DNA of 32,000 bases from contig OZ252279.1 of the NCBI GenBank assembly GCA_965250005.1, forward strand, positions 720,001 through 752,000, written 5' to 3'. The position numbers and the translations under genes were made by a program. The stretch comes from Demequinaceae bacterium (GTDB lineage: Bacteria > Actinomycetota > Actinomycetes > Actinomycetales > Demequinaceae). Positions 1-16,848 of the stretch are shown here, in pieces. Numbering within the stretch: the stretch's first letter is position 1; each line of letters begins with the position of its first letter. The notes under the pieces are model-generated. The model saw nothing but the letters and a program-made list of their open reading frames with translations, searched no databases and was not told the DNA's origin.

Positions 1-40
1 CCACGTCACGGCGAAACTCCTCAGGAAAAACTTTAGGCAT
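1..40 (-). CDS. IS3-family transposase OrfA, first 13 codons only (gene runs off the left edge of the window)
   Basis: The reverse complement of 1-40 reads ATG CCT AAA GTT TTT CCT GAG GAG TTT CGC CGT GAC GTG = MPKVFPEEFRRDV. This is an N-terminus typical of IS3-family OrfA; compare MPAPRKYPQELRDRAIRF of the IS at 15667-16827. A GGAAGGA Shine-Dalgarno (rc of 48-54) lies 7 nt upstream. Confidence 0.6.
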   Translation of the reverse strand, partial: MPKVFPEEFRRDV

Positions 41-90
41 AACAACATCCTTCCACCAAGACCCTCCCAGGTCCCAGAAGTCAGTTGTCA
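1..90 (-). mobile_element. Terminal part of an IS3-family insertion sequence; outer end inferred near nt 90
   Basis: The rc of 61-90 is TGACAACTGACTTCTGGGACCTGGGAGGGTCT. It starts with TGA and carries the same GGAGGGTCT block, at a similar distance from the OrfA ATG, as the orfA-proximal end of the IS at 16800-16827 (TGAATCGCCTCGGGTTTAGTGGAGGGTCT). The exact end cannot be fixed without the other terminus. Confidence 0.5.
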
Positions 91-145
91 CCTATCCCTG
101 CACCAGCCCCTTGGGACTGGATCCCTGGGGTGGGCCGTTCTCGCT

Positions 146-3112
146 TTGGATGAGGACGGCAAGCCGTTTCGCATTGAGCGCATGGGCTCGCGGATATTTG
201 GCACCGGGCGCAAACCGAAGGACAACACGTCGCTTGCGGCGGATCGCACGCAGGCTCGGTCGATGCGCAGGCGCCGCGATCGCTATTTGCGCCGCCGAAA
301 TATGACGATCAACCAGCTCGTCGCGGCTGGTCTCATGCCTGAAGACAAAGCAGCTCGCAAAAAGTTGGTTTCGCTTCACCCCTTCCGGCTACGTTCTGAA
401 GGTCTGCACAGAGAGCTAACGTTGCATGAGCTGGGCCGGGCGCTCTTCCACTTGCAGCAACGTCGGGGGTTCAAAAGCAACCGCAAGGCGGACAAGGGTG
501 ACAGCGATTCGGGAGCCATGAAGACGGCAATTCTGGACACTCAGTCCCGAATTCCTACTGGGGAGACAGTGGGCTCTTATCTTTGGGCACAGATTCTGGA
601 GGGCGAGAGCGCGCGTGCGAGGCGGCGCGGCGAAGGAGCAAAGGCCACCTATGACTTCTACGTGAACCGCCAGATGGTTCAAGAAGAGTTCGACGCATTG
701 TGGGAGTCTCAGAGACGGTTTCACCCCGAAGAGCTCGACCAAGAAGCGTATGACGCAGTCCACTCCGCCATCTTCTTTCAGCGGGCCCTCAAGCGGGTCC
801 AGGTGGGCAAGTGCTTCTTCGAGCGTGAAGAGGAACGGGCGGCCGATGCGTTGCCGTCATCGCAACTGTTCCGGCTGTATCAGGAGGTCAACAACCTCAT
901 GGTCCGCGATCACGATGACGCAACACTGCGCCTTCGACCTCTCACGCGAAACGAGAGGGATAGGGCCATCGAGTACCTCGGCGCGATCAAGGATTCCACC
1001 TTTGCGAAACTCGGCGAGAAGCTCTTCGGCAGGGCGTCTCGGTTTGAATTCAATCTTCAGGCGGGTGAACGCTCCAAGATCAAGGGAAACGACGTCGCCA
1101 GCACTCTCAAGGGGAAGAAGGCATTCGGGCCTTCCTGGTTCACCCTCCCCTTGGATCAGCAAGATGAAATCGCTCAAAGAATTGAAGACGTGGAGTCTGA
1201 AGCGGACGAGGAGGGCCTGGCGTTCTGGCTCCGCGAAGCCCACGGACTATCCCCCGACAACGCGCATCACGTCGCCACCAAAGTGAACTTGCCCGACGGC
1301 CACCGCCGCCTGAGTTCAAAGGCGATCGGCAAAATACTCCCGCACCTCAGTGACGGTTGGGATGAGGAGCATGGTCGCGCGCTCCGGTACAGCGACGCGG
1401 TGGAGCAGGTTGACGAGCCAAACTACCGGAGCCACAGCGAGCAGCACACCGGGGACCTCTTTGAGCATCTCCCCTACTACGGGAAGATTCTCCACCGGTA
1501 CACCGCAGACGTACCACGGCGTGAAGATGAGGCCGTACAGAAAAACACCGACGCGAACGAGTGGGAGTACGGACGCATCGCGAACACCACGGTCCACATC
1601 GGCCTGAACCAGATCCGCAAGGTGGTCAATGCCCTCATCAACGCGTACGGCCTCCCGGCCGAGGTCCACGTTGAAGTAGCCCGCCACCTGGGACAGAGCC
1701 GCGAAGCGCGCATCGAAGACTCAAAGCGGAGGCGCGAAGGGGAGGAGAACAACGAACGGATCCGCGAGATTCTTGAGGATCTGGGAGTCAAGGACAATTA
1801 TGACAACCGCACGCGCGTGAAGTTGTTTGAGGAGCTTGCACCGCTTAGCCACCGGTGCATATTCACTGGCATCCCAATAGCGCGTGCGCGCATGTTCACC
1901 AACGACTACCAGGTGGATCACGTGTTGCCGTATTCGCGGACTCTGGACGACAGTTACGGCAACAAGATCTTGATTCACCACACCGCGAATCAGTTCAAGG
2001 GAAACTACAGCCCGTTTGAGGCGTATGGCGGCAGCGAGGACTGGGACCAGATTCTGGACCGCGCGGAGGCGCTTCCGAAAAACAAGTACAGCCGCTTCAG
2101 CGAAAACGCCATGGAGCGCTACGAGGCGGGTGCCCAGGACTTCATCGCTCGGCAGCTCACGGACACTGCGTACCTGGCCCGGGTGACCAAGATGTACCTA
2201 GCGAGCATTGTTGACCCGAATCACGTTTTCGCGATGCCCGGCCGGCTCACCGGAATGCTACGAGCCAAGTGGGGGCTCAATGGGATCCTGTCGGATTCCG
2301 GGAAGAAGGAGCGCACCGATCACCGCCATCACGCCATTGACGGTGTGGTTATCGCACTTACCGACCGCAGCATGCTTAAGCGAGTTACGGACGCCAACAA
2401 ACGCGCCAGCGAGCAAGGGATGGACCGGCTACTCAAAGAGTTTGAGCTCCCTTGGGACGGCTTCATGGAAGAAATCCAAGCCAAGACGGACGCCATCGTG
2501 ATCTCTCACAAACCTGACCACGGCGCTGGAGGTCAACTGCACGAGGAGACCGCCTATGGAGTGAATGAAGGTCCGGATATGGAGGGTCGTTACCTTACCC
2601 ACCTCGGAGGCAATGACGCGAAGTGGCGGCGGGTCATTCCCATTTTTCGCGAGAGAGAATCACCGGACTCAGCACCGCCTTTCAAAGCGTATATCGGTGG
2701 ATCAAACTACTGCGTCGAGATTGTTCGGCAGTCAACAGGCAAGTGGTCAGGTGAGGTCATCTCTACATTTCAAGCAAACCAGCGCGAATACCAGGCATTC
2801 ATGACGGACCGGAGCCGCTTTTTGCACCATAGCTTCTCGGGGCTTCCGCTAGTAATGCGCTTGATGGCGGATGATGCCATTGCAATTGAGGAGGATGGAG
2901 AGCGCAGGATTATGCGCGTATGCAAAATTGACTCAGCTGGCCCCATGTACTTTGCGGGCCATCTGGAAGGCAACGTAGCTGCGCGTAGCCGGGACAAGTC
3001 GGACTCGTTCTCAATGTTGAAGAAGAGCGCCAATCCTCTTGCGCTTCTGTCTGCACGCCGGGTATTTGTCGACCCACTGGGAAATATCCTTGACCCTGGG
3101 TTTCACGGCTAG
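146..3112 (+). CDS. cas9: Type II-C Cas9, 5'-disrupted: RuvC-I motif lacks the catalytic Asp and there is no ATG/GTG start; possible pseudogene or RuvC-dead variant
   Basis: 988-aa ORF from TTG146.
- Arg-rich bridge helix: RTQARSMRRRRDRYLRRR.
- RuvC-II: VHVEVARHL.
- HNH: YQVDHVLPYSRTLDDSYGNKILIHHTANQFKGN.
- RuvC-III: RTDHRHHAIDGVVIA.
Homology continues upstream of 146 in the same frame to about nt 110 (PLGTGSLGWAVLAL). It is followed directly by cas1 and cas2, with no csn2 or cas4. Confidence 0.9.
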   Translation: MDEDGKPFRIERMGSRIFGTGRKPKDNTSLAADRTQARSMRRRRDRYLRRRNMTINQLVAAGLMPEDKAARKKLVSLHPFRLRSEGLHRELTLHELGRALFHLQQRRGFKSNRKADKGDSDSGAMKTAILDTQSRIPTGETVGSYLWAQILEGESARARRRGEGAKATYDFYVNRQMVQEEFDALWESQRRFHPEELDQEAYDAVHSAIFFQRALKRVQVGKCFFEREEERAADALPSSQLFRLYQEVNNLMVRDHDDATLRLRPLTRNERDRAIEYLGAIKDSTFAKLGEKLFGRASRFEFNLQAGERSKIKGNDVASTLKGKKAFGPSWFTLPLDQQDEIAQRIEDVESEADEEGLAFWLREAHGLSPDNAHHVATKVNLPDGHRRLSSKAIGKILPHLSDGWDEEHGRALRYSDAVEQVDEPNYRSHSEQHTGDLFEHLPYYGKILHRYTADVPRREDEAVQKNTDANEWEYGRIANTTVHIGLNQIRKVVNALINAYGLPAEVHVEVARHLGQSREARIEDSKRRREGEENNERIREILEDLGVKDNYDNRTRVKLFEELAPLSHRCIFTGIPIARARMFTNDYQVDHVLPYSRTLDDSYGNKILIHHTANQFKGNYSPFEAYGGSEDWDQILDRAEALPKNKYSRFSENAMERYEAGAQDFIARQLTDTAYLARVTKMYLASIVDPNHVFAMPGRLTGMLRAKWGLNGILSDSGKKERTDHRHHAIDGVVIALTDRSMLKRVTDANKRASEQGMDRLLKEFELPWDGFMEEIQAKTDAIVISHKPDHGAGGQLHEETAYGVNEGPDMEGRYLTHLGGNDAKWRRVIPIFRERESPDSAPPFKAYIGGSNYCVEIVRQSTGKWSGEVISTFQANQREYQAFMTDRSRFLHHSFSGLPLVMRLMADDAIAIEEDGERRIMRVCKIDSAGPMYFAGHLEGNVAARSRDKSDSFSMLKKSANPLALLSARRVFVDPLGNILDPGFHG

Positions 3113-3118
3113 ATCGCC

Positions 3119-4042
3119 ATGATCGGCCAGGTTGTCGAGATCGTTGAGTCCGACCGCTACCTGTCCCTGGAATACGGAAACATGCTTGTCCGCTCCAAGG
3201 ATCAGGTGCTGGGCAGGATAGCTCTCGACGACATATTGGCCGTTGTCGTCAACCCTCACGGCGCTACCTTGTCAGCCGGAATCATGGCCGAGTTAGCGAC
3301 TCGCAACATTCCGCTAGTTATTGCCGGGAAACATTTCAAACCGGTGGCCGTGCTGATGCCTCTAGTTGGGAACTTTGAGGTCTCAGCCCGCATCGCAGCC
3401 CAAGCAACGGCCTCCGTCCCCACCAAGAAGCAGGCGTGGAAGCAGGTGGTCCAGAGCAAGATCACCATGCAGGCGATGGCCTTGGAAACCACAGGTGGAG
3501 ATGCTGGGCGAATGTGGGACATGATTCCGCAAGTCAGGTCGGGCGACGTGGGTAACCTTGAGGCGCAGGCGGCTCGCCACTATTGGAAACGGATGTACGG
3601 GGAGTCCTTCCGCCGTGACCGCGACCAGCCGGGTATCAACGCGCTTCTCAATTACGGATACGCAGTGATTCGAGCGGCGACGGCGCGGGCCATCGCGGCG
3701 TCCGGGCTCCATCCCAGTCTGGGGATTCACCATGTGAACCCGCTCGACACGATGCGCCTGGTTGACGACCTCATGGAACCGTATCGGCCTCTAATCGACT
3801 TGCGTGTCTACGGAATCCTCAACACCGGGGTTATTGATGTCGTTCCTGAAACCAAGAAGATGCTCGTGGCAGTCCTCTCCACCGATATAGCGACGGAGGT
3901 TGGGTCTAGCCCGGTCTCGATGGCCATGTTCAGAACTGCACAATCGCTCGTGAAGCTCTTCAAGGGCGAGCGAGAGACTCTGGAGCTTCCAGACCAACGA
4001 ACGCGTGAGTCGCTTCCGGATCTGGCTGAAGCGTTCATATGA
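3119..4042 (+). CDS. cas1: Cas1 integrase (type II)
   Basis: 307 aa. Motifs INALLNYGYAVIRAA, GIHHVNPLDTMRLVDDLMEPYRPLID. Starts 6 nt after the cas9 stop. Confidence 0.93.
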   Translation: MIGQVVEIVESDRYLSLEYGNMLVRSKDQVLGRIALDDILAVVVNPHGATLSAGIMAELATRNIPLVIAGKHFKPVAVLMPLVGNFEVSARIAAQATASVPTKKQAWKQVVQSKITMQAMALETTGGDAGRMWDMIPQVRSGDVGNLEAQAARHYWKRMYGESFRRDRDQPGINALLNYGYAVIRAATARAIAASGLHPSLGIHHVNPLDTMRLVDDLMEPYRPLIDLRVYGILNTGVIDVVPETKKMLVAVLSTDIATEVGSSPVSMAMFRTAQSLVKLFKGERETLELPDQRTRESLPDLAEAFI

Positions 4043-4368
4043 GCGAGTTATCGGGGTATCGACTGATGTGGATCGTGACGCTGTTTGACCTCCCGACTCT
4101 TACAAAAGTGCAGCGCCGGGAAGCGAGCATCTATCGTAAGGAGCTCCTGAAGCGAGGGTTCCAGATGGCCCAATTGTCCGTCTACTTCAAGTATTGTCGG
4201 GACAAAGAGCAAGCTCAGGTCGTCGTAAGCGACGTCGTCTCAATCGTGCCCGCTGGTGGCCGCGTGGACGTATTATTGATCACGGACAAGCAGTACGCGA
4301 ATATTGCGACAATCCGTGGAGATCGGAAGGTCAATCGTGAGAATCCATCGCAACTCAGCCTCTTCTAG
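4039..4368 (+). CDS. cas2: Cas2 (type II)
   Basis: 109 aa. The N-terminus YRLMWIVTLFDLPT is typical of the type II Cas2 beta1 strand. ATGA overlap with the cas1 stop. Confidence 0.88.
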   Translation: MSELSGYRLMWIVTLFDLPTLTKVQRREASIYRKELLKRGFQMAQLSVYFKYCRDKEQAQVVVSDVVSIVPAGGRVDVLLITDKQYANIATIRGDRKVNRENPSQLSLF

Positions 4369-4396: not shown

Positions 4397-4440
4397 GATC
4401 TGGTTGTTTACCCTGGTAAACCAGGGTAAACAACCAGATC
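4397..4440. terminator. Perfect 44-nt palindrome (20-bp stem, TAAA loop) between cas2 and the CRISPR array; candidate bidirectional terminator or insulator
   Basis: GATCTGGTTGTTTACCCTGG-TAAA-CCAGGGTAAACAACCAGATC, with no mismatch. It lies 28 nt after the cas2 stop and 1 nt before the first repeat. There is no U-tract on either strand. Confidence 0.5.
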
Positions 4441-4441
4441 C

Positions 4442-5530
4442 AGTCTATCGCTCTGGGAAACGAGCCCTGGCCGCAACCGGGTGGCGACTACTGTGCGTTA
4501 GCGACAAAGTCTATCGCTCTGGGAAACGAGCCCTGGCCGCAACTTCTGGCCTGCCGTTGAAGGTAAAACGCCTAGTCTATCGCTCTGGGAAACGAGCCCT
4601 GGCCGCAACTCGAGGTCGTCGTGCCACCAGGCGCAACCGAGTCTATCGCTCTGGGAAACGAGCCCTGGCCGCAACTCATCCACTACTTCCCCATTCCCTA
4701 TGTGAGTCTATCGCTCTGGGAAACGAGCCCTGGCCGCAACTGATAAACCATCGCGCTCTGGATCCTCGAAAGTCTATCGCTCTGGGAAACGAGCCCTGGC
4801 CGCAACTCATAAGTAGCGGCGGCGGGATGCCGCACAAGTCTATCGCTCTGGGAAACGAGCCCTGGCCGCAACACGCCCGGTTGCGATTGTGTGACGGGCT
4901 ACAGTCTATCGCTCTGGGAAACGAGCCCTGGCCGCAACACACGTCTCCTAGTGTTGCGTTAATCATCAAGTCTATCGCTCTGGGAAACGAGCCCTGGCCG
5001 CAACTGGTTCGACACTCAGGCGAACGTCCTCCAAGTCTATCGCTCTGGGAAACGAGCCCTGGCCGCAACTCAACCATAGGCGGGGGGTGGTACCGCGTTA
5101 GTCTATCGCTCTGGGAAACGAGCCCTGGCCGCAACTTAGGAAAGTCCGTGTGGGACAAGGACCGCAGTCTATCGCTCTGGGAAACGAGCCCTGGCCGCAA
5201 CTTCGAGCGTTGCCCGGCCTTCTGCGTCGTAGTCTATCGCTCTGGGAAACGAGCCCTGGCCGCAACTGGGGACCGTTGTAGCCGCTGGTAAGTTCGAGTC
5301 TATCGCTCTGGGAAACGAGCCCTGGCCGCAACCCTTCGCCATTCACAGTTCCGCACTGATTTAGTCTATCGCTCTGGGAAACGAGCCCTGGCCGCAACTC
5401 CTTCGACACAATGGAGCGCATCGAGAATAGTCTATCGCTCTGGGAAACGAGCCCTGGCCGCAACGTACAAACAGTCATGGCGGAGATTGATTCCAGTCTA
5501 TCGCTCTGGGAAACGAGCCCTGGCCGCAAC
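4442..5530 (-). CRISPR. CRISPR array: 17 identical 36-bp repeats and 16 spacers (13 of 30 bp, 3 of 29 bp)
   Basis: Plus-strand repeat: AGTCTATCGCTCTGGGAAACGAGCCCTGGCCGCAAC. Repeat starts: 4442, 4508, 4574, 4640, 4705, 4771, 4837, 4903, 4969, 5034, 5100, 5166, 5231, 5297, 5363, 5429, 5495. The minus-strand reading GTTGCGGCCAGGGCTCGTTTCCCAGAGCGATAGACT has the canonical type II GTTG... start. The strand call is therefore inferred, convergent with the cas genes as in many II-C loci. Confidence 0.97.
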
Positions 5531-5593
5531 CTTACAAAGGCGCGGAACCCTTGTTGTGCGGTTGCGGCCAGGGCTCGGCGGGCACACCTAAGC
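5531..5593 (-). ncRNA. Candidate tracrRNA (anti-repeat region); boundaries unknown
   Basis: 5561-5577 (GTTGCGGCCAGGGCTCG on the plus strand) is a perfect inverted copy of 17 nt of the repeat. A minus-strand RNA would carry CGAGCCCUGGCCGCAAC, complementary to the first 17 nt of the minus-strand crRNA repeat. Upstream, GCUUAGG (rc of 5587-5593) can pair with repeat nt 22-28 (CCAGAGC), giving a bulge plus upper-stem layout. The 30-nt tail contains the hairpin ACAAGGG-UUCCGCG-CCUUUGU. No other anti-repeat was seen in the window. Confidence 0.45.
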
Positions 5594-5633: not shown

Positions 5634-5707
5634 TGGGCCAGGTGGGGCTCGAACCCACGACCGACGGATTATGAGTCCGCTGCTCTAACCGGCTGAGCTA
5701 CTGGCCC
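5634..5707 (-). tRNA. tRNA with CAU anticodon (elongator Met, or Ile2 if lysidine-modified); CCA not fully encoded
   Basis: The rc reads GGGCCAGTAGCTCAGCCGGTTAGAGCAGCGGACTCATAATCCGTCGGTCGTGGGTTCGAGCCCCACCTGGCCCA. It folds as a cloverleaf with acceptor GGGCCAG/CTGGCCC, anticodon loop CTCATAA and T-loop TTCGAGC. The anticodon stem lacks the three G-C pairs of an initiator tRNA. Confidence 0.9.
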
Positions 5708-7067: not shown

Positions 7068-7143
7068 TCCCTCATAGCTCAATTGGCAGAGCAGCCGACT
7101 GTTAATCGGCAGGTTGTTGGTTCGAGTCCAACTGAGGGAGCCA
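7068..7143 (+). tRNA. tRNA-Asn (GUU), CCA encoded
   Basis: TCCCTCATAGCTCAATTGGCAGAGCAGCCGACTGTTAATCGGCAGGTTGTTGGTTCGAGTCCAACTGAGGGAGCCA. Acceptor TCCCTCA/TGAGGGA, anticodon loop CTGTTAA. Confidence 0.93.
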
Positions 7144-8558: not shown

Positions 8559-10502
8559 CTAATCCTCTCGCAATGCTCGACGCTCGCCCTCAAACGCGAT
8601 GAGTTCCGCGAAGGCGTCCTGGTAGCCCTCGCCGCCTTCGCCGATGCGCTGCATGCGCCCGCGAACGTCGGCGATCTGACGCGTGAGGCTCAGATCCCAC
8701 ACGCGCCCGAGCACGCTAGTCGCGTACGTCGCAACCTCTGCGGGCTTGTGATGCGGCAGCGGCGAGACAGCGAGCTGGGAAACCACGCCGGCAAGCGTCT
8801 CGCCCACTTCCTCGACCACGCGGTTAGTCCAGTCGCTACCCGCGCCGGCGATACCGCCCGCCGCGAGCACGCCCTCAAACACGGCGCGGTACTGCGGAAC
8901 AGTGAAGGTGTCGGCCGACAGTTTTGCGATCAGCTCGGCGGTAATCTCCGCGGGGATCTGAAGGATCACCTCGAGAGCGAGGCGCTCGGCACGCACCACG
9001 GGGTCGCGCGAATCGGGGCCAGCCGTGGCGGCTCCGGCGTCGGCTTCGGGGTCCGCTCCGGGATCCGGGGGCGGGTACTCGCCGCCCTGCGGAGGCGCGG
9101 ATGATCCGCTGCGGGAAGCGGAGGACGGGCGCTGCTGCTGCGTCGCGGGGCGCGAGCGGGCGGCACTGCCCACGGCCCGGCGCACCTCCTCGTGATCCAT
9201 GCCGAGCCAGCCCGCGAGCAGCCGAGCGTACTCGGGCTGCAACGCGCGGTCCTTGATCCCGGCGACAACGGGGGCGGCGGCACGCAACGCGGCGACTCGA
9301 CCCTCGGCGCTCTCAAGGTTGTTGCCCGCCAGCGCCGCCTTGATCACAAACTCGAACAACGGCACGCGCGACGCGACCAGCGCCGCTACGGCCTTGTCGC
9401 CCTGCTCCTGGCGCAGGTCGCACGGGTCGAGCCCGTCAGGCGCGACAGCGACGAATGTTTGCGACAGGAACTGCGACTCAAGCTGGAAAGTCTTGAGCGC
9501 GGCATTCTGTCCCGCCTCGTCGCCGTCGAAAGTGAAGATGACCTCGCCGCTGCCTACGCCAACCTTTTGCGGCGCGCCAGAGGCACCGCCCATGAGCCGT
9601 CGGATCACCTTTGCGTGGTCCTCGCCGAAGGCCGTGCCGCATGTGGCGACGGCGGTGTCGACGCCCGCAAGGTGGCAGGCCATCACATCGGTGTAGCCCT
9701 CGACCACCACCACCTGCCGTTTCCCAGCGATCTTCTTCTTGGCCAGGTCCAGGCCGTAGAGCACCTGTGATTTCTTGTAGATCGCCGTTTCGGGGGTGTT
9801 GAGGTACTTGGGCCCCTCGTCGTCCTCGTAAAGCTTGCGCGCGCCAAACCCGATCACCTCGCCCGTCACGGCGCGAATGGGCCACACTAGGCGGCCGCGA
9901 AAGCGATCGTAGATGCCTCGCTGGCCCTCAGAGACCAGCCCGGACGCCTTAAACTCCGGCTCCGTGAATCCCTTGGCACGCAGGTGTTCGAGCATATTCG
10001 ACCAGCCCTTGGGCGCGTATCCCACTCCGAACGTCTCTGCGGCTTCCTTGCCGAACCCGCGCCCCTGTAGAAAATCTCGGCCCGCCTTAGCCTCGGGTGT
10101 CTCGAGCTGGGCCACGAAGTACTCGGCTGCCACCCGGTGGGCCTCCAGAAGGCGCTTGCGCATCCCGGGCTCGCCACCAGAGGAGCGCTGCCCGCCCGCC
10201 TCGTAGCGCAGCGTCACGCCCGCGCGGTCGGCGAGGTACTCGACAGCCTCGGCGAACGGCAGCCCGTCCGCTTTCATTACGAATGCGATGACGTCCCCAC
10301 CCTCTCCGCAACCGAAGCAGTGCCAGTGGCCCTGCCCTGGACGCACGTGGAACGAGGGCGTCCGTTCGTCGTGGAAGGGACACAGGCCCTTAAGCGAGCC
10401 CACCCCGCCGCTCTTCAGGGCTACGTGCGCGCCGATGATCTCTTCGATTGGGGCGCGCTCACGGACCGACGCAATGTCGTCGCGATTGATGCTCCCAGCC
10501 AC
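8559..10502 (-). CDS. dnaG: DNA primase
   Basis: 647 aa. Zinc-ribbon CPFHDERTPSFHVRPGQGHWHCFGCGEGGDVIAF; TOPRIM segment VVVVEGYTDVMA...FDGDEAG. Confidence 0.95.
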   Translation of the reverse strand: MAGSINRDDIASVRERAPIEEIIGAHVALKSGGVGSLKGLCPFHDERTPSFHVRPGQGHWHCFGCGEGGDVIAFVMKADGLPFAEAVEYLADRAGVTLRYEAGGQRSSGGEPGMRKRLLEAHRVAAEYFVAQLETPEAKAGRDFLQGRGFGKEAAETFGVGYAPKGWSNMLEHLRAKGFTEPEFKASGLVSEGQRGIYDRFRGRLVWPIRAVTGEVIGFGARKLYEDDEGPKYLNTPETAIYKKSQVLYGLDLAKKKIAGKRQVVVVEGYTDVMACHLAGVDTAVATCGTAFGEDHAKVIRRLMGGASGAPQKVGVGSGEVIFTFDGDEAGQNAALKTFQLESQFLSQTFVAVAPDGLDPCDLRQEQGDKAVAALVASRVPLFEFVIKAALAGNNLESAEGRVAALRAAAPVVAGIKDRALQPEYARLLAGWLGMDHEEVRRAVGSAARSRPATQQQRPSSASRSGSSAPPQGGEYPPPDPGADPEADAGAATAGPDSRDPVVRAERLALEVILQIPAEITAELIAKLSADTFTVPQYRAVFEGVLAAGGIAGAGSDWTNRVVEEVGETLAGVVSQLAVSPLPHHKPAEVATYATSVLGRVWDLSLTRQIADVRGRMQRIGEGGEGYQDAFAELIAFEGERRALRED

Positions 10503-15650: not shown

Positions 15651-15681
15651 ACCGTCTACGGTTTCTTGAATCGCCCCGGGT

Positions 15682-16449
15682 TTAGTGGAGGGCGGGTTCT
15701 CCCAGGAGCGGTTGCTCGTGGGGTGTGTTCTCACGGTAGTACAGGTCTTCCTTCTCGATTGGTGTGAGGTATCCAATCGAGGAGTGGAGGCGGTTGTCGT
15801 TGAACCAGTGGACCCACGACAGCGTCGCGAGTTCGAGCTCGTCGCTGTGATGGATCACGCTATCGATGTTCTCGCCGGCGCGGGAGCGGACCCATAACGC
15901 CATCTCGAGGGCGTCGAGTGGCAGTTCGGTGGGCATTCGGTTCGTGGTGCGCCAGCCGACGATTCGCCGGGAGAACACGTCGGTCACGAACGCAGTGGAC
16001 GCCATCCCAGACCAGGTCGGCACGTAGGTGAAGTCCACGACCCACAGCTCATTGGGACATTCGGCACGGAAGTTGCGCTTCACGTGATCCGGTGCTCGGT
16101 TTGCTGCCGGATCGGGACGGGTCGTGACGAACTGTTTGCCGCGACGCACCCCGCGAAGCCCCTGAGCCCGCATGAGACGCTCCACCGTGCAGCGGGCGGT
16201 CACGACACCGTCACGCTTGAGTAGGCGCCACACCTTTCGCGCACCCGAGATCCCGCGACCCTTCGTGCGGTCCCAGAAGACCCGCTCAATGTGTTCGCGC
16301 AACTCTTGATCACGCACCGTCCGCTGCGAGATGGCACGCGTTTTGAACGCGTAGTAAGTAGACGGGGCGATCTTGACTCCGTGCTCGGTGAGCACCCGGC
16401 AGATCGGCTCGACCCCGAAACGAACACGATGCTCGTCGATGAAGTTCAC
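15682..16449 (-). CDS. IS3-family transposase OrfB, truncated catalytic core (in-frame internal deletion)
   Basis: 255 aa. It has the first D (WVVDFTYVPT) and second D (VIHHSD). HHSD then joins directly to ELELATLSWVHWFNDNRLHSSIGYLTP. The roughly 70-aa segment that normally carries the DDE glutamate (RGSQY...DN..ES) is missing. Confidence 0.85.
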   Translation of the reverse strand: MNFIDEHRVRFGVEPICRVLTEHGVKIAPSTYYAFKTRAISQRTVRDQELREHIERVFWDRTKGRGISGARKVWRLLKRDGVVTARCTVERLMRAQGLRGVRRGKQFVTTRPDPAANRAPDHVKRNFRAECPNELWVVDFTYVPTWSGMASTAFVTDVFSRRIVGWRTTNRMPTELPLDALEMALWVRSRAGENIDSVIHHSDELELATLSWVHWFNDNRLHSSIGYLTPIEKEDLYYRENTPHEQPLLGEPALH

Positions 16450-16784
16450 TAAAACGGAAGTCGCGGGTCGAGCTCCCGCGCGAAGAAACTTGACGCCGCC
16501 AACAAAATATCGTTGGCACGCTTCAACTCACGATTCTCACGCTCGAGATCTTTGATACGGGCCGCGCCGACCGTGGCGATGCCCCTGACCTCGCCGGCGT
16601 CAATGCGCGCCTGTTTCACCCACCCACGCAACCTGTCCGGAATCACCCCCGTGCGATGACCGATACGGATCACCGCCGCATTCAACGACAACGACACCTC
16701 CTGGCTCATCGCCTCACTTACGAACCGAATGGCCCGATCCCGCAACTCCTGCGGATACTTCCTCGGTGCTGGCATGACTCCCAT
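16449..16784 (-). CDS. IS3-family transposase OrfA (HTH)
   Basis: 111 aa. MGVMPAPRKYPQELRDRAIRFV..., with leucine-zipper-like IKDLERENRELKRANDILLAASSFFA before the frameshift region. Confidence 0.88.
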   Translation of the reverse strand: MGVMPAPRKYPQELRDRAIRFVSEAMSQEVSLSLNAAVIRIGHRTGVIPDRLRGWVKQARIDAGEVRGIATVGAARIKDLERENRELKRANDILLAASSFFARELDPRLPF

Positions 16785-16848
16785 CCTTTCGGGAAATCAG
16801 ACCCTCCACTAAACCCGAGGCGATTCAATGCGCTCCCCCAGGGTTGCG

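Follow-up and report, generated by a model that had tools for sequence, protein, structure and literature searches.

A 32,000-nucleotide (nt) stretch of DNA from a Demequinaceae bacterium (contig OZ252279.1, positions 720,001 to 752,000; analysed as a whole and here called the window) opens at its left edge into a cas9 gene whose first RuvC motif (RuvC-I) appears to have lost its catalytic aspartate (Asp). The question raised by this locus is whether the motif was mutated, possibly leaving a Cas9 with HNH activity only, or whether its altered appearance has another origin. We found that the apparent mutated RuvC-I motif is the junction between a transposon and the gene. It is very probable that this junction goes back to one event in which an IS3-family insertion sequence (IS) hit the 5' end of a type II-C cas9 directly past the catalytic Asp codon.

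The gene itself was identified from its translation, from Pfam domains and from its homologues.

111 to 3112, plus strand: 5'-truncated type II-C cas9; (C)TT GGG ACT GGA TCC encodes [L]GTGS, and the frame then runs uninterrupted to the stop codon.

The open reading frame (ORF) harbors the Pfam domains HNH_4 (E = 3.3e-17), RuvC_III (E = 9.4e-23) and Cas9_a, comprises about 1000 cas9 codons without a stop and aligned over its full length to more than 100 Cas9 homologues in a protein search. The HNH, RuvC-II and RuvC-III motifs, described as intact in the original prediction, were indeed found intact in the translation. The G+C content of cas9 is 58%, and that of the window is 64%. The N-terminal RuvC-I motif with its catalytic Asp (..LGLD[LVI]GT[GN]S.GWA) is missing, and its in-frame remainder reads LGTGSLGWA. 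The gene is a Cas9 gene by descent that has been disrupted. Translation of the left edge also bore out what had been read there, since frame +2 is open from nt 2 (reading HVTAKLLRKNFRHNNILPPRPSQVPEVSCHLSLHQPLGTGSLGWAVLALDEDGKPFRIERMGSRIF) and contains neither an Asp nor an ATG or GTG codon upstream of TTG-146; the frame reads through as ...VSCHLSLHQPLGTGSLGWAVLALDEDGKPFRIERMGSRIF. Before nt 200, the only start-type codons in this frame are TTG-146 and ATG-182. As it stands, the ORF therefore lacks both the D10-equivalent Asp and a native start, and it abuts the end of an IS3-family element, as had been proposed. The following features were assigned to this end.

1 to 110, minus strand: left (orfA-proximal) end of an IS3-family element, based on blastn matches to actinobacterial IS3 elements and a seven-sequence alignment; the remainder lies left of the window.

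1 to 40, minus strand: 5' end of the putative IS gene orfA, with its ATG at nt 40-38, reading MPKVFPEEFRRDV... (direct reading).

48 to 54, minus strand: Shine-Dalgarno-like GGAAGGA 5' of orfA; the block ACATCCTTCC is kept in all seven aligned IS copies.

86 to 110, minus strand: terminal inverted repeat (IRL) TGTCACCTATCCCTGCACCAGCCCC, with the outer tip 5'-GGGGCTGGTGCAGGGATAGGTGACA (pattern search).

111 to 113, no strand: probable target-site duplication TTG, 3 bp, deduced only from a related element (L007).

The divergent frame predicted to be the start of OrfA was indeed read on the minus strand from nt 40. Only 13 of its codons lie in the window, which is too short for Pfam, and nt 1-57 showed 80 to 84% identity to the 5' ends of annotated "IS3 family transposase" genes in blastn. 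GGAAGGA would be the ribosome-binding site of orfA. When nt 1-110 and then nt 1-200 were used as blastn queries against plasmid records, matches were obtained to Rhodococcus, Frondihabitans, Micrococcus, Streptomyces, Mycobacterium, and other IS3 elements, all on plasmids of Actinomycetota, and in both searches the matches stopped at nt 110-115. An alignment of the window with six IS3-family relatives revealed an invariant block, TCAGnTGTCACCTAnCCnTGCAnCAGnCCC, that ends at window nt 110; beyond this position, the seven sequences are unrelated. In a pattern search, nt 86-110 were recovered as a 25-nt repeat with one mismatch to the consensus TGTCACCTATCCCTGCAGCAGnCCC. The partner repeat at the right end (IRR), GGGnCTGCTGCA...GGTGACA, was found in three full copies of the element, and full relatives span 1.27-1.30 kb.

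796 to 2063 of L002: full copy in Micrococcus luteus.

1309 to 2604 of L005: full copy in Frondihabitans.

1263 to 2530 of L007: full copy in the M. avium plasmid pMAH135.

The pair of terminal repeats in Frondihabitans was also recovered independently by a repeat search. In M. avium pMAH135, TCA borders the copy at either end, a 3-bp duplication as is typical of the IS3 family. This duplication defines the tips of the element as GGG...CCC, and because of it the TTG at nt 111-113 was assigned as the probable duplication in the window.

The IS terminus had originally been placed at nt 90, that is, 20 nt short of the end found here. Since the IS ends at nt 110, antisense IS sequence accounts for the apparent Pro codon (nt 107-109), for everything translated ahead of it and for the first base, C, of the Leu codon CTT (nt 110-112). 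The gap of about 20 nt between IS and motif that followed from the earlier placement does not exist. The loss of the Asp had been attributed to either a D-to-P substitution or a 4-codon in-frame deletion. Both proposals treat nt 91-109 as cas9, although these positions belong to the terminal inverted repeat of the IS, and neither event is needed.

The end shows several traits of the IS3 family (IS911, IS2, IS3, IS150). Its putative orfA begins some 70 nt in from the end, behind the conserved Shine-Dalgarno block, and the 25-nt terminal inverted repeat is common to the six relatives, of which the full copies measure 1.27-1.30 kb and one has a 3-bp duplication. Six elements have an IRL that matches nt 86-110, and three of them also have a matching IRR; these elements adjoin genes annotated as "IS3 family transposase". 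In contrast to the textbook TG...CA, the tips of this IS group are GGG...CCC, and the closest plasmid-borne relatives are merely 70-80% identical over this end. The comparison covers 110 nt of the element, with orfB, the frameshift site, the DDE (rve) catalytic domain and the right end located left of the window.

To establish which residues are missing from the gene, its Cas9 homologues were compared at the RuvC-I motif. The protein search yielded 2537 homologues, of which 120 were listed and 75 of these were scored automatically. In 74 of the 75, an Asp precedes the G-T of the motif by two residues, the single exception being P0001. Inspection of the unscored homologues by eye showed that most read ..YRLGLD.G.., while a few are N-terminally truncated calls starting well downstream of the motif. 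The N terminus of the family can be written as (M)x-Y-R-L-G-L-D-[LVI]-G-T-[GN]-S-L-G-W-A, and the window retains precisely [L]GTGS onward, beginning with the first base past the IS tip. P0001 (1058 amino acids) is the database copy of the window gene, with 100% identity. Its first ~58 residues (MRDPEILGNLLLRRLTAPGNRNHVTAKLL...) are read-through of the antisense strand of the IS, starting at an ATG that lies 64 nt outside the left edge of the window, and P0001 is a chimeric gene call.

Among the matches listed, the next relatives are 62-54% identical and start with M..KYRLGIDLGTGSLGWAVLEL, M..RYRLGLDLGTGSLGWAVLEL, and MRYRLGLDVGTGSLGWAVLEI. Named Cas9 relatives include those of Demequina and Cryobacterium, with the Cas9 of Demequina sediminicola (P0013) showing 54% identity; the host is probably an actinobacterium. 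P0002, a metagenomic protein of 1048 amino acids with 62% identity over 100% of the query, is intact. The 5' end of its gene is uninterrupted (ATG AAG TAC CGG CTC GGC ATT GAC CTG GGC ACC GGT TCG), and its locus is syntenic with the one in the window (cas9-cas1-cas2 ... dnaG). None of the close orthologues checked has the P-LGTGS N terminus of the ORF in the window. One further homologue, P0029 (MGSDSLGWAA...), was considered as an Asp-less orthologue and rejected as a mis-called start at an internal ATG, as its DNA (L013, 1477-1503) reads MMKYRLGLD-MGSDS in frame.

From these data, the following course of events can be proposed. An IS3-family element would have transposed into the RuvC-I coding sequence, ...Y-R-L-G-L-D | L-G-T-G-S-L-G-W-A-V..., with the breakpoint at the Leu codon next after the catalytic Asp, i.e., between the Asp and Leu codons. 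The IS ends at nt 110, and cas9 picks up at nt 111 with TT GGG ACT GGA TCC. C110, the last base of the IS, completes the CTT codon by chance, and the antisense strand of the IS, free of stops in the same frame, makes the ORF seem extended leftward as ...SLHQP-LGTGS. The start codon, the ribosome-binding site, the promoter, and the M..YRLGLD codons, including the D10-equivalent Asp, would be located on the far side of the ~1.3-kb IS or would have been lost. In this model, the ORF has no Asp because its codon was parted from the remaining gene by the insertion, which alone would have caused the loss. Within the 32-kb window, neither another stretch coding for YRLGLD nor a second copy of the IS end at nt 1-110 was detected. 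The 26-mer just right of the junction had no exact match among metagenome contigs, a megablast search against plasmid records gave no match, and a scan of genome contigs returned solely a Roseovarius locus with 42% identity.

The remainder of the CRISPR locus was annotated as follows.

3119 to 4042, plus strand: cas1 (Pfam Cas_Cas1, E = 4.9e-26).

4039 to 4368, plus strand: cas2 (Pfam CRISPR_Cas2, E = 1.2e-11).

4442 to 5530, no strand: CRISPR array of 36-nt repeats (17, all identical) with 16 spacers, 29-30 nt long (repeat analysis).

5554 to 5577, no strand: anti-repeat, putative element of a trans-activating CRISPR RNA (tracrRNA); 24 nt, with 92% complementarity to the last repeat's 3' part and the bases adjoining it.

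The anti-repeat may, by its complementarity, belong to a tracrRNA. The ORF list contains no csn2 or cas4 between cas2 and the array. With cas9, cas1, and cas2 as its only cas genes, 36-nt repeats, an anti-repeat, and HNH and RuvC-II/III motifs in one protein of ~1000 amino acids, the locus has the makeup of type II-C. It matches other type II-C loci in the HNH_4/RuvC_III/Cas9_a content and size (~1010-1050 amino acids) of its Cas9, in the adjacency of cas1 and cas2, in repeat length, and in the anti-repeat by the array. It differs in that the IS has severed the first ~10-15 codons with the RuvC-I Asp, which every homologue examined keeps. Between cas2 and the first repeat, at window positions 4397-4440, lies a perfect 21+21-nt palindrome (GATCTGGTTGTTTACCCTGGT / ACCAGGGTAAACAACCAGATC), possibly a terminator or else a leader element. 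Directly past the anti-repeat lies a tRNA gene (5634-5707, minus strand), and a second tRNA gene follows at 7068-7140 (plus strand).

Considering its sequence, cas9 is likely an insertion-inactivated gene, in line with the original suggestion of an inactivated locus as one of two outcomes. The insertion would be recent, as suggested by the intact cas9 body, cas1, and cas2 and by the identity of all 17 repeats. IS-disrupted cas genes are commonplace, and an insertion-disrupted cas9 is nothing new in kind; the locus would be one more CRISPR-Cas system turned off by a mobile element, apparently recently. It matters mainly for annotation, as an example of a catalytic motif that looks mutated and is a transposon junction. 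If this Cas9 clade is mined for enzymes, the N terminus would have to be rebuilt from the far side of the IS.

Disrupted cas9 genes have been described in Mollicutes, including Mycoplasma arthritidis, in which cas9 is frameshifted, and such knock-outs were linked to tolerance of self-targeting spacers (PMC6882279). As in these bacteria, cas9 would here be knocked out in an otherwise complete locus. Unlike there, the gene was hit by an IS at its very 5' end, and none of the 16 spacers matched another site in the 32-kb window with up to 5 mismatches. Self-targeting spacers were therefore rejected as the selective reason for the knock-out as far as the window extends.

Several points weigh against the proposed single insertion. 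The left IS junction lies beyond the window, and the single-event reconstruction and the TTG duplication are extrapolated from the right junction and from relatives. A clear target duplication is absent in two of the three full IS relatives. The loss of Cas9 function, too, is something that we infer from the gene's sequence. Finally, nt 111-122 (TTG GGA CTG GAT) encode LGLD in frame +3, whereas nt 110-124 encode LGTGS in frame +2, which could hint at a second lesion.

The last point leads to the alternative that survives best, although it is improbable. It places the IS insertion four codons upstream of the site proposed above, between ..YR and LGLD, and adds a separate 13-nt deletion that collapsed a tandem quasi-repeat, TTGGGACTGGATC-TTGGGACTGGATC, encoding LGLD-LGTGS. 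The Asp codon would then have been kept (GAT, nt 120-122) and be out of frame. The LGLD of frame +3 sits exactly where frame +2 reads LGTGS, and the chance that codons for L-G-T-G-S yield an overlapping LGLD is ~7e-4, given the codon usage of this cas9. Moreover, the orthologue L011 carries the near-tandem pair TTGGGACTAGATC / TGGGGACTGGATC at the same spot (11/13 identical), so that a slippage-prone repeat is plausible. On the other hand, the shifted frame of the intact orthologues L010 and L011 likewise gives LVLD and WGLD, and, because both share the ACT-GGA-TCN codons with the window, the coincidence is mostly inherited codon choice. In addition, an IS inserted between the copies of an ancestral tandem 13-mer would produce an identical right junction, and the LGLD reading does not discriminate between one lesion and two. 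As the coincidence is needed under both models, parsimony favors the single lesion, the alternative invoking two independent events where one is enough. The RuvC-I coding sequence of this Cas9 clade (window 111-124 and the 13-mer pair of L011) is a potential slippage site.

We further considered that the disrupted gene may still be expressed as a RuvC-dead, HNH-only nickase or DNA-binding protein, which we regard as very unlikely. The product would be either a fusion of IS antisense sequence to Cas9 (the 1058-amino-acid ORF) or a protein starting at TTG-146 or ATG-182. A long open frame does span the junction, and a gene caller predicted P0001 from it; the ~1000 codons that remain have kept their HNH and RuvC-II/III motifs, and cas1, cas2, and the array are likewise undamaged. 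Furthermore, the D10A variant of SpCas9 is a nickase, and it shares with the ORF in the window the absence of the first RuvC catalytic Asp next to an intact HNH. D10A, however, is a point substitution in a folded and expressed protein, whereas here the N-terminal strand, the start codon, and the promoter have been removed. The product would lack the entire first RuvC beta-strand (YRLGLD), or have it replaced, rather than miss one side chain, and misfolding would be likely. An intact body, in turn, is expected equally after a recent insertion. The original prediction had invoked an IS-borne promoter for such a nickase, which the data do not support: no sigma-70-like promoter was detected in nt 1-600 on either strand by a consensus scan, which covers actinobacterial promoters poorly. 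Besides, cas9 adjoins the orfA-proximal end of the IS and points away from it, and transcription would need to run antisense to orfA. We likewise give little credence to the stronger version of this idea, in which the IS would have converted the gene, with an IS-outward transcript giving an N-terminally replaced or truncated Cas9 that, loaded with CRISPR RNA, may act as a natural HNH-only nickase or programmable DNA binder.

Equally remote is an assembly artefact, in which the contig would have been mis-joined at a repeated IS copy and the organism would have an intact cas9. IS elements are well known for causing mis-assemblies, and at least one more IS3-family element is present in the source genome within 16 kb. 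That second element of the window (15666-16828), however, has ends unrelated to the IS at nt 1-110, the junction lies precisely at the IS tip as for a true insertion, and the database copy of the gene is on a 2.0-Mb contig. Even with a mis-join, the reads would have to contain an IS copy directly next to this position of cas9. Hardly any weight can be given to the original version, with an IS terminus at nt 90, a cas9 or leader origin of nt 91-109, and loss of the Asp by a D-to-P substitution or in-frame deletion of L-D-L-G: the reverse complement of nt 61-90 does begin with TGA, like many IS3 ends, and frame +2 is continuous across the region, but nt 86-110 are the block most conserved with the six IS3 elements of other genera, and match those elements' own right-end repeats, similarity stops at nt 110, and LSLHQP agrees with YRLGLD of the family at one of six positions.

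The genes in the neighborhood of the locus include dnaG, a gene for a dGTPase-like HD protein, a class II aminoacyl-tRNA synthetase gene, and an ORF with a Fur domain, and the region is therefore chromosomal. The primase gene dnaG was observed downstream of the cas genes both in the window (8559-10502) and in the locus of P0002 (L009, 6459-7284), which indicates that the chromosomal position of the cas locus is conserved. The second IS3-family element is apparently complete and bounded by 38-nt imperfect terminal inverted repeats. It contains an ORF with rve and HTH_21 domains (15682-16449) and an Rfam ALIL frameshift pseudoknot (16363-16490, minus strand).

With regard to the insertion site, the cas9 flank GGGACTGG (113-120) shares 7 of its 8 bases with the IS tip GGGGCTGG, in inverted orientation and 2 nt from the IS end. 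The arrangement of flank and tip at window positions 103-120 is similar to the abutted ends in the circle junction of IS3-family elements. Only four such 8-mers are present on the plus strand of cas9 and none on its minus strand; a tip-like flank was not seen in the flanks of related IS copies. According to a passage in PMC3299598, which cites Rousseau 2007, IS911 was reported to prefer targets with its own end sequences when OrfA is absent. A possibility still weaker than that of a converted gene is that the resemblance of the RuvC-I codons GGGACTGG to its own tip GGGGCTGG drew the IS to this exact site; if so, RuvC-I of cas9 would be a recurrent target for this IS group. On a Streptomyces plasmid (L003, 1987-2031), an IRR-like and an IRL-like terminal repeat of this IS group overlap head-to-head without a transposase gene between them. 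This overlap may be what remains of a solo end, or a relic that resembles a circle junction.

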